DNA from: a virus
Lineage: Duplodnaviria; Heunggongvirae; Uroviricota; Caudoviricetes
IMG/VR virus record: IMGVR_UViG_2698536672_000010
DNA length: 10,206 nt
Direction: 5' to 3' (one strand)
In this document: positions 7,819 to 8,952 of the stretch, piece by piece
How the letters are laid out: each line of letters begins with the position of its first letter
Position numbering within the stretch: position 1 is the first letter of the stretch
Notes under the pieces: model-generated
What the model saw: the letters and a program-made list of their open reading frames with translations, nothing else
Database searches by the model: none
What the model was told of the DNA's origin: nothing
Translations under genes and position numbers: made by a program

Positions 7819-8118
7819 GTGAGAAAGTTAAGCCGACTTGAAAAATACCACATGAATAAGGTTTCAATGCGCAGTCCGTCAAAGATTGCCGCCGTTACTC
7901 CTGCGGCGATAGAGATCGAAAAACGCGCGATTGAAAGAGAGAAAAAAGGGCAGTTCCGCATTGCCGCTCACCTTTGGCTTCAGTGTATGGATGTTGCTTC
8001 TGGTGATGTTGAACGTGCAAGGATCGCGGTTCGCAGGGACCAATGTATCACAAAAGGTAACGGCCTTCGCCGTGGCGACTATAGCGGCATAGGATGTTGT
8101 GGGGTGGTTTATGACTAA
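7819..8118 (+). CDS. PerC-like (Pch-like) transcriptional regulator, putative; start uncertain
   Basis: Segment EKKGQFRIAAHLWLQCMDVASGDVERARIAVRRDQCI resembles the PerC/Pch core I recall (E-x-K-G-L-W-R-R-A-A ... W ... R-R-x-x-C). Track start at 7819 is a GTG; ATGs at 7852 and 7867 are alternatives. The 3' end overlaps the methyltransferase start by 8 nt. Confidence 0.45.
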   Translation: MRKLSRLEKYHMNKVSMRSPSKIAAVTPAAIEIEKRAIEREKKGQFRIAAHLWLQCMDVASGDVERARIAVRRDQCITKGNGLRRGDYSGIGCCGVVYD

Positions 8119-8761
8119 GAAATACACACTAATCTATGCAGATCCACCCTGGGTATACCGGGACAAAGCCGCAGATGGTAATCGCGGTGCCGGTTTTAAA
8201 TATCCAGTTATGAGTGTGCTGGATATCTGCCGCCTTCCTGTGTGGGATTTGACCGCTGAAAACTGTCTGTTGGCCATGTGGTGGGTGCCAACACAACCAC
8301 TCGAAGCACTAAAAGTTGTTGAAGCCTGGGGATTTCGTCTGATGACGATGAAGGGCTTCACGTGGATAAAATGTGGTAGTCGACAACCAGATAAACTGGT
8401 TATGGGTATGGGACACATGACTCGCGCCAATAGTGAAGATTGCCTGTTTGCGGTAAAGGGAAAACTACCTACGCGCATTAATGCAGGGATCGTTCAGTCA
8501 TTTACCGCACCGCGGCTTGAGCATTCAAGAAAGCCAGATATCGTTCGTGAAAAACTTGTGCAATTATTAGGCGATGTTTCTCGCATTGAACTGTTCGCCC
8601 GCCAGACGTCTCATGGCTTCGATGTTTGGGGTAATCAGTGCGAAGACCCGGCAGTGCAACTACACCCTGGATACGCGTTGGATATTGGCGGATTAACAAA
8701 TGCATTCAGCAATGCTCCGCTGTCACCAACAGACATCCAGGGGCGAGAGCGTGCTGCATGA
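8111..8761 (+). CDS. MT-A70-family DNA N6-adenine methyltransferase (orphan)
   Basis: ATG at 8111 with GGTGG upstream (track lists a GTG at 8099). N-terminal YTLIYADPPWVYRD has the DPPW catalytic motif, followed by LLAMWWVP, AWGFRLMT and GMGHMTRANSEDCLFAVKGK, matching MT-A70-like layout. No adjacent restriction endonuclease gene. Confidence 0.85.
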   Translation: MTKKYTLIYADPPWVYRDKAADGNRGAGFKYPVMSVLDICRLPVWDLTAENCLLAMWWVPTQPLEALKVVEAWGFRLMTMKGFTWIKCGSRQPDKLVMGMGHMTRANSEDCLFAVKGKLPTRINAGIVQSFTAPRLEHSRKPDIVREKLVQLLGDVSRIELFARQTSHGFDVWGNQCEDPAVQLHPGYALDIGGLTNAFSNAPLSPTDIQGRERAA

Positions 8762-8952
8762 ACAGGGCATCACCAGCAGATTTAAGAAAATGCCTTGAAA
8801 CTGCAAACATGCTTGCACACAGCGGGATCAGGTTTGTTCCAATTCCCGCTGTCACTGATGCTGAATTTGCAACACTGTCAGCAATATTCGAAAACAAAAT
8901 TGAATCACTGGCAGCAGAAGCAGAGATGGAAGAAAATCAGCAGAACTATTAA
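8758..8952 (+). CDS. Small hypothetical protein (64 aa), coupled to the methyltransferase
   Basis: ATG at 8758 overlaps the methyltransferase stop as ATGA. Translation MNRASPADLRKCLETANMLAHSGIRFVPIPAVTDAEFATLSAIFENKIESLAAEAEMEENQQNY. The track's longer ORF from 8638 overlaps the methyltransferase out of frame and is unlikely to be the real start. Confidence 0.45.
   Translation: MNRASPADLRKCLETANMLAHSGIRFVPIPAVTDAEFATLSAIFENKIESLAAEAEMEENQQNY

Follow-up and report, generated by a model that had tools for sequence, protein, structure and literature searches.

What does a solitary adenine methyltransferase do beside the integrase of a prophage, and is the small gene that overlaps its end a partner in this activity? 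The question is raised by the 10,206-nucleotide stretch of the tailed-phage record IMGVR_UViG_2698536672_000010 (Caudoviricetes), which at its full length is called the window throughout, and in which a gene of the MT-A70 family and a 64-residue open reading frame (ORF) follow one another and converge on the integrase gene. An initial annotation of the window had read the two as an orphan methyltransferase and its possible partner, carried as accessory cargo. The explanation that we favour, and to which we give somewhat better than an even chance, is that they would be two independent accessory genes, a Dam-like GATC methylase and a member of the Orf63 family, placed together at the end of an early-left operon. 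The confidence in this explanation is limited mainly by the substrate of the enzyme; the assignment of both proteins to their families and the conclusion that the small one is not a partner of the other are much firmer. The features that carry the argument are the following.

8111-8761, plus strand: orphan MT-A70 (beta-class) N6-adenine methyltransferase, 216 residues, starting MTKKYTLIYADPPW, Pfam MT-A70 PF05063
8141-8152, plus strand: DPPW catalytic motif IV of the methylase, residues 11-14, codons gat cca ccc tgg
8672-8761, plus strand: residues 188-216 of the methylase, a hypervariable and probably disordered C-terminal tail, ending ..RERAA and carrying the ATGA junction
8758-8952, plus strand: DUF1382 / lambda Orf63-family protein, 64 residues, PF07131, phrog_292
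8956-10206, minus strand: integrase gene, 416 residues, P4-type tyrosine integrase with Arm-DNA-bind_3, Phage_int_M and Phage_integrase matches

The methylase matches PF05063 from one end of the profile to the other (positions 1-172 of 172; E 3.9e-22, 79.4 bits for a cut-off of 23.9) and its catalytic motif is intact, which bears out the MT-A70 assignment first made from the DPPW tetrad. This motif is N-terminal, ahead of the S-adenosylmethionine (SAM)-binding region, in the permuted order expected of the beta class, and together with the C-terminal E160-L161-F162 block it is invariant or nearly so across 34 homologues. The tails of the methylases, on the other hand, differ between loci, and in the AlphaFold2 model of the window protein, whose mean predicted local distance difference test score (pLDDT) is 60.5, residues 197-216 fall below 50. 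Among solved structures the best sequence matches are Tetrahymena MT-A70-family chains, at about 50-52 bits versus about 27 bits for METTL3, and the protein aligns end to end with one of these chains, 7F4R. Some of the matched Tetrahymena entries were deposited as 'mRNA m(6)A methyltransferase'; we take these chains to be the ciliate DNA 6mA methylase MTA1.

Profile scans of the other ORFs of the window detected no restriction endonuclease family, and none is found among the 64 annotated features of the closely related phage phiV10 (NC_007804); the sole nuclease family among the window ORFs is that of the RecE-like PD-(D/E)XK partner of RecT. The methylase is therefore an orphan, as had been proposed from the window alone. 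It is also a maintained gene: its reading frame is open, without premature stops, in 82 of 82 phiV10-type copies on viral contigs, so that the disruption in relatives against which the initial annotation had wished to check is not observed. The methylase has a ratio of non-synonymous to synonymous polymorphism (pN/pS) of 0.21, the DUF1382 gene one of 0.16 and the PerC-like gene that precedes them one of 0.23; all three are intact and under purifying selection.

The 64-residue protein had been regarded as uncharacterised, which does not hold. It matches PF07131 over the full profile (E 1.8e-30, 105.2 bits for a cut-off of 27), is 51% identical to phage lambda over residues 1-51 in tblastn, and aligns by phmmer with the lambda Orf63 chain of PDB 8DSB, solved by nuclear magnetic resonance (E 8.5e-13, residues 2-62), with the (R)FVPIP strand and the flanking helices kept. 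These matches place it in the DUF1382/Orf63 family, of which 8DSB is the only solved member. The invariant positions of Orf63 are F28, V29 and P32; in lambda and in Phi24B the protein makes prophage induction faster and stronger and lowers the survival of the host, a pro-lytic action, and its hydrophobic cleft binds a designed amphipathic helix (PMC10869804, PMC5575149). By analogy, the window protein may share this pro-lytic role. In lambda, K54 is required for activity, while Glu is the prevailing residue there in the family, and the authors of that work suggest that perhaps not all Orf63 proteins are active (PMC10869804, PMC5575149); the window protein has E aligned to K54. As for the genomic position, lambda Orf63, in the exo-xis region, is likewise encoded in the early-left operon, with the recombination genes on one side and int on the other; it has no adjacent methylase, unlike the window gene, which is also the last before a convergent int. 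In phage PA28 (NC_041935.1) two separate DUF1382-like places are present, one straight after the methylase; the other is not gp12.

Does this protein act through the methylase? Its ATG overlaps the TGA of the methylase as ATGA at 8758-8761 (4 nucleotides), a coupling that the initial annotation had described correctly and beside which it had placed the idea of a specificity or regulatory partner. In its fuller form, this idea would have DUF1382 serve the methylase as a subunit for specificity or regulation, and the pair reprogram host methylation as lysogenic-conversion cargo. It can call upon the overlap of the two genes, upon the presence of DUF1382 behind the methylase in Stx2a phages too, upon the Orf63 cleft that takes an amphipathic helix, and upon the fact that Orf63 and the methylase of the Shiga toxin (Stx) phage phiPA8 both favour induction. 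The comparative evidence contradicts it, and we hold it to be very improbable. Indeed, lambda, 434, P27, VT1-Sakai and others carry DUF1382 without a methylase under or beside the match. When the neighbours of the methylase were surveyed by tblastn in 40 species-level loci with orthologues at 55-91% identity, DUF1382 was not found in these loci. The immediate downstream ORF, scanned with Pfam in 30 of these loci, in the window and in the Stx phage PA28, is a DUF1382 gene in the last two only; the other 30 of these 32 ORFs encode RusA, LexA-DNA-binding, NinH, DUF968 and other proteins. When 361 loci are grouped at 90% identity, 53 methylase clusters result, of which 2 have DUF1382 as the downstream neighbour and 51 do not.

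The exchange can be followed between nearly identical methylases. Among the 542 E. coli records that carry the methylase at a level of at least 95% identity, 373 have the DUF1382 gene behind it and about 30% do not. In a spread sample of the latter, the homology ends at query positions 651-653, that is, exactly at the methylase stop, and the slot is occupied by a 219-residue Ser/Thr phosphatase. The 4-nucleotide overlap, the convergent integrase and the guaA site are unchanged, and the PerC-methylase pairs of the two arrangements are 97-99% identical. In enterotoxigenic E. coli (ETEC) H10407 the swapped gene is the following.

L364 (locus of ETEC H10407), 4148-4807: Ser/Thr phosphatase in the swapped slot, equivalent of window 8758-8952

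A phosphatase is likewise listed beside the methylase of phage BP9. Furthermore, an ATGA overlap at the methylase stop is present in 21 of the 53 clusters with unrelated genes downstream; it is therefore not evidence of partnership, and the coupling is a property of the operon and not of the methylase/DUF1382 pair. The methylase of 19 of the 53 cluster representatives ends ..AA, often after a Shine-Dalgarno-like GAGG, with a GCATGA junction. The methylase tail is Gly/Pro-rich and predicted to be disordered, which is not the amphipathic helix that the Orf63 cleft would take; the block is not bracketed by a promoter or a terminator; and for the closest characterised homologue, the partner for which there is experimental evidence is the product of an upstream gene, not of a downstream one (PMC10810198). 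From the phages that carry DUF1382 alone, its rarity behind the methylases, the phosphatase swap and the generic ATGA junctions, we conclude that DUF1382 is a swappable neighbour and not a dedicated partner of the methylase.

The junction itself, at window 8740-8761, looks like a conserved module-junction or ribosome-binding element of mosaic exchange. The DUF1382 frame is open for 120 nucleotides before its ATG, over the methylase tail, which gives a 104-residue ORF from a GTG at 8638-8952; it is probably meaningless. That the methylase and DUF1382 might be joined by a programmed -1 frameshift was considered and rejected, no slippery heptamer being seen by inspection in 8638-8758.

If the two genes are independent, what would the methylase modify? 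Orphan, phage-encoded methylases whose GATC specificity duplicates that of the host Dam are classically known from T4 (T4 Dam), P1 (P1 Dam) and VT2-Sa (VT2-Sa Dam); they belong to other sequence families, with alpha-class or T1-Dam-like folds versus the MT-A70 fold found here. For the window enzyme, GATC-directed adenine DNA methylation after induction appears to us the most likely activity, at even chances or very slightly above. This specificity would follow from that of its homologues, and its timing from the layout of the operon. Over residues 1-187 the window methylase shares 83% identity with PA28 gp05, and the tails beyond are unrelated; this gene was taken as the Stx-phage type and served for the comparison with the Stx2a-phage enzyme M.EcoPA8orf6770P (gp5). 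M.EcoGV, of O104:H4, is described by Gong et al. as 'highly similar' to the PA8 enzyme and as methylating GATC in vivo from a plasmid (PMC10810198); it is listed as GATC in table 3 of PMC6602927, and REBASE gives such enzymes as GATC-specific. With M.EcoPA8orf6770P and M.EcoGV the window enzyme shares the MT-A70 fold, the DPPW motif and the int-proximal early-left position. A second line comes from the more distant p32 of Serratia phage BZS1 (vB_SspM_BZS1, PhiBZS1_p32), 40% identical with a 23-residue insertion in the alignment. Cloned alone in a dam- host, it rendered DNA resistant to MboI and sensitive to DpnI, other m6A-sensitive sites being still cut, and the Tn1549 enzyme M.EfaBMDam is also GATC-specific (PMC7556043). 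These two enzymes resemble the window methylase in being orphan, int-proximal members of MT-A70, and BZS1 has an ANR-family gene immediately upstream; it differs from the window in its co-directional int and xis genes and in its lack of DUF1382. At one further locus (L041) the methylase adjoins a C5 DNA methylase, an arrangement that fits a DNA-modification role. GATC is not depleted in the window (38 sites observed versus 39.8 expected), which speaks neither for nor against a GATC specificity.

Several points weigh against this reading. The specificity of the phiV10-type enzyme would be that of homologues, and among these the substrate of the phiPA8-type reference enzyme is itself disputed between GATC DNA and 16S ribosomal RNA (rRNA). 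The purified M.EcoPA8orf6770P exhibited neither GATC-specific nor other significant DNA methylation in vitro, and with its companion PNB-2 it preferred 16S rRNA (PMC10810198). The GATC assignment of M.EcoGV, as reported in the citing papers from which we take it second-hand, stems from over-expression. The timing of expression, for its part, is deduced from simple consensus scans, and the homologous genes of phiPA8 are said to be transcribed in the lysogen from a stationary-phase promoter (PMC10810198).

The sequence of events that we propose would begin with the firing of the operon upon induction or infection, by which the methylase would be made. The enzyme would then keep the fast-replicating phage DNA fully methylated where the host Dam is outrun or absent; this full methylation would shield the phage DNA from GATC restriction of the methylation-sensitive kind and keep Dam-dependent processes going. 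An increase in spontaneous induction, such as was reported for its Stx-phage homologue, may be a further effect of the enzyme. The DUF1382 gene would supply an Orf63-family dimeric developmental protein from an exchangeable slot, without acting through the methylase. With a GATC-specific enzyme, the absence of an additional m6A motif in a lysogen would tell nothing, because the host Dam already methylates GATC.

Two other activities have to be weighed against GATC methylation. The enzyme could be the MT-A70 catalytic subunit of a 16S rRNA adenine methyltransferase, with the PerC/ANR-like protein encoded upstream, in place of PNB-2, as the small targeting subunit of the heterodimer; ribosome methylation would tune translation and raise prophage induction. 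This proposal draws on the work of Gong, Chakraborty and Koudelka (2023), in which the DPPW motif of the phiPA8 enzyme was needed for a higher spontaneous induction and for amoeba killing, and in which PNB-2 co-purified 1:1 with the enzyme and shifted its preference to 16S rRNA (PMC10810198). The catalytic core of the window enzyme is 83% identical to that of the PA8/PA28 type, and the gene upstream in the window is likewise small and overlaps the methylase start, as in phiPA8, where the DUF1382 gene also follows directly downstream; a PerC/ANR-like gene stands directly upstream in 7 of the 53 clusters and within 1.5 kilobases in 5 more, in various contexts. Homologues of PNB-2 and PNB-1, however, were not found in the window (best tblastn E 0.18): a PerC/ANR-like gene without similarity to PNB-2 takes the place of the latter, and the C-terminal 27 residues of the type in E. 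coli that make Shiga toxin (STEC), the suspected PNB-2 binder according to Gong et al. (PMC10810198), are not kept in the window enzyme, whose tail past residue 187 is unrelated. The phage is a phiV10-type podovirus and not, like phiPA8, an Stx lambdoid. The rRNA claim was built on a SAM-consumption assay in which no modified base was mapped (PMC10810198), BZS1 p32 alone methylates GATC DNA despite its upstream ANR gene (PMC7556043), and about 40 of the 53 MT-A70 clusters are without a PerC/ANR neighbour. On balance, we judge an rRNA methyltransferase unlikely in the window.

Still less probable, in our opinion, is a relaxed or non-specific adenine DNA methyltransferase acting in broad anti-restriction, in the manner of M.EcoGII, of p25 from OS31, a neighbour phage of BZS1, or of Hia5. 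The small size of the enzyme (216 residues), which has no obvious separate target-recognition domain, would agree with it, as would the weak and non-specific use of SAM by the PA8 enzyme purified alone, with DNA and RNA (PMC10810198), and similar phages do encode non-specific adenine methylases. The GATC specificity of M.EcoGV, BZS1 p32 and M.EfaBMDam argues the opposite; the plasmid carrying BZS1 p32 was still cut by other m6A-sensitive enzymes (PMC7556043), and OS31 p25 is set apart there as another enzyme, with ARM81ld p56 as its closest homologue (PMC7556043). The GATC-directed DNA methylase therefore remains the reading with which we continue.

If a companion of the methylase is to be sought in the window, the gene upstream of it is a better candidate than the 64-residue protein.

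7852-8118, plus strand: PerC/ANR-like small protein, PerC PF06069; possible starts at 7819 and 7852, start at 7867 in the Prokaryotic Genome Annotation Pipeline (PGAP)

PGAP names this gene 'PerC family transcriptional regulator'. The protein scores above the threshold of PF06069 (30.1 bits for a cut-off of 22.6) and under that of the related ANR (AraC negative regulator) family (NF033650; 24 bits, E 2.5e-5, cut-off 32). The stop of its gene overlaps the methylase start by 8 nucleotides, so that the methylase has a coupled gene at either end. Directly upstream of the methylases of BZS1 and L041 are ORFs that pass the ANR cut-off, with 50.9 and 53.2 bits. With a home-made PerC/ANR profile run over the 53 methylase clusters, which are phylogenetically non-independent, such a gene was counted directly upstream and on the same strand in most members of the 7 clusters mentioned above, and outside these and the 5 clusters that have it within 1.5 kilobases it was detected anywhere else in a single one; Pfam and NCBIfam individually confirm some of these upstream ORFs. 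The pairing recurs in at least three unrelated settings: its neighbour is a convergent int in the phiV10 type and a co-directional xis-int pair in BZS1, and in L020, L026 and L032 it lies in the rightward arm, between a replication gene (lambda-P or Phg_2220_C) and rusA. In L041, genes for a PerC and an ANR protein stand before those of a methylase extended at its C-terminus and of a 747-residue C5 DNA methylase. The pairing persists where the downstream gene has been swapped. The loci that combine PerC/ANR and MT-A70 genes are these.

Window, 7852-8118 with 8111-8761
L123, 11039-11886
L020, 3567-4570
L026, 3637-4600
L032, 3756-4567
L041, 3520-4801

We put forward, tentatively and as a doubtful proposal, that the PerC/ANR-family proteins would be dedicated companions of MT-A70 enzymes, forming with them a mobile two-gene cassette. 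In such a cassette the PerC/ANR protein may be a subunit for targeting or regulation, comparable to PNB-2, METTL14 or MTA9, or may set the timing of the methylase in the way of the C protein of a restriction-modification system. A strict partnership is opposed by the clusters, about 40 in number, that lack such a neighbour, by the several phiV10-like relatives in which genes are inserted between PerC and the methylase, and by the ability of BZS1 p32 to methylate without a companion (PMC7556043). A connection between PerC and an adenine methyltransferase was not found in our literature search, nor did a protein search, which returned 123 close relatives, yield a robust PerC/MT-A70 fusion. Rare in-frame PerC-methylase variants do exist (P0003 and P0001, 297 and 263 residues, 97-99% identical, 2-3 members each), which we did not count as Rosetta-stone evidence, small indels being their simplest origin. 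In the 102-residue P0220 a 98%-identical PerC segment is joined to a Pfam domain of DUF1382, as though a deletion had removed the methylase; it is probably an indel as well. A co-variation of the methylase tail with the type of upstream gene, at which Gong et al. had hinted, was considered and rejected, the tails of the PerC/ANR-adjacent methylases having no common motif.

In relatives from other Enterobacterales, the gap that separates PerC from the methylase is a hot spot of insertion, with genes for a 355-residue DndB/DGQHR-like protein, an HNH endonuclease, a PD-(D/E)XK protein or DUF1317 proteins at the following places.

L010, 2937-4004
L009, 3513-4004
L011, 3492-3998
L006-L008, upstream ORFs

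A DGQHR protein adjoins the methylase in Salmonella phage SPN1S too.

How would these genes be expressed? Two elements downstream of the repressor-like gene, together forming a candidate early-left promoter/operator region at 5128-5227 (a hairpin and then a near-consensus -35/-10 pair), bear on this question.

5128-5156, plus strand: intrinsic-terminator-like hairpin and T run just past the repressor-like gene; hairpin at 5128-5147 with an 8-base-pair stem including 6 GC pairs, then TTTTATTGCC
5199-5227, plus strand: candidate early-left promoter TTGACA-17-AATCAT, with 10 of 12 consensus matches, a consensus match only

The annotation of phiV10 places a terminator at the position that matches window 5128-5156. 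Consensus scans found no other promoter-like or terminator-like site on the plus strand between 5227 and 9300. The candidate promoter would drive the genes from 5401 through 8952, and we infer that the methylase and the 64-residue protein are read as the last two genes of an early-left operon of about 3.7 kilobases, in the order PD-(D/E)XK nuclease, RecT, AlpA-like, PerC-like, methylase, DUF1382, and then antisense into int. They would be the end of this operon and not a self-contained moron, because no promoter-like or terminator-like site of the plus strand flanks the block. The description of the block as accessory cargo is thus partly retained: it is a variable accessory stretch beside the integrase gene, and it does not look like an autonomous moron. 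The convergence with int that had been noted is confirmed, the stop of the integrase gene lying 3 nucleotides from that of the 64-residue gene. At 8952-8958 the operon and int therefore meet without a terminator-like element, and in consequence the early-left transcripts should read antisense through int.

The origin of the window is clear from its gene order and from its near-identity with the early-left arm and the integrase of phiV10, by which we identify it as the early region of a phiV10-type prophage (Uetakevirus; phiV10/epsilon15-like). From p36 to p31, phiV10 encodes AlpA, PerC, the methylase, DUF1382 and the convergent integrase with protein identities of 96-100%: the AlpA-family protein of the window is 100% identical to p36, the PerC-like protein is 98% identical to its counterpart, and the methylase and DUF1382 proteins are 96% identical to PhiV10p33 and PhiV10p32. 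phiV10 differs from the window by an extra 38-residue membrane ORF annotated between AlpA and PerC and by a fused RecE-RecT, encoded by separate genes in the window. A literature search found no functional work on the PerC, methylase and DUF1382 genes of phiV10. The remainder of the window is a lambdoid-style immunity and replication set, which includes DnaT/HTH_36 (helix-turn-helix, HTH) and lambda-P replication proteins, DUF1064, the PD-(D/E)XK nuclease with RecT, and the following genes.

350-1078, minus strand: Ead/Ea22-like protein, of a family of the lambda exo-xis region
4138-4368, minus strand: unassigned 76-residue ORF divergent from the repressor gene, in the position expected of a Cro-type gene
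4523-5107: HTH repressor or repressor-like gene
7461-7709, plus strand: AlpA-family HTH protein (excisionase or regulator), Phage_AlpA E 3.1e-5, phrog_66 excisionase/regulator

The Ead/Ea22-like gene lies in the rightward operon, past the O/P-like replication genes, and is not int-proximal. Beyond the limits of the window, p54 of phiV10 (L363, 38492-38773) is an ASCH-domain protein, in a phage that also encodes an adenine methylase; the ASCH family was reportedly predicted by Iyer et al. to bind modified nucleic acids.

The region 7400-10206 was found in 569 of 5426 complete E. coli genomes (about 10%) at 95-99.8% identity, and in these relatives the prophage adjoins guaA. In E. coli BCE049, the RefSeq annotation by PGAP gives exactly the same coordinates for the MT-A70 gene (651 nucleotides), the DUF1382 gene (195 nucleotides) and the integrase gene (1251 nucleotides). 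The block is thus a common and already annotated prophage module of known families.

In conclusion, our comparison removes a tempting wrong lead, that of Orf63 as a subunit of the methylase, for a block which about one tenth of the sequenced E. coli carry, ETEC H10407 and many clinical isolates among them. The window enzyme, with 83% identity in its core, a different tail, a different upstream protein and no PNB-2, is a natural comparison for the disputed enzyme of the Stx phages. Are these enzymes Dam mimics, rRNA methylases or both, and does the recurring PerC/ANR neighbour play any role in methylation? If its dedicated companionship were true, it would link a family known only for the regulation of virulence genes (PerC/Pch, Aar) to the methylation of nucleic acids.

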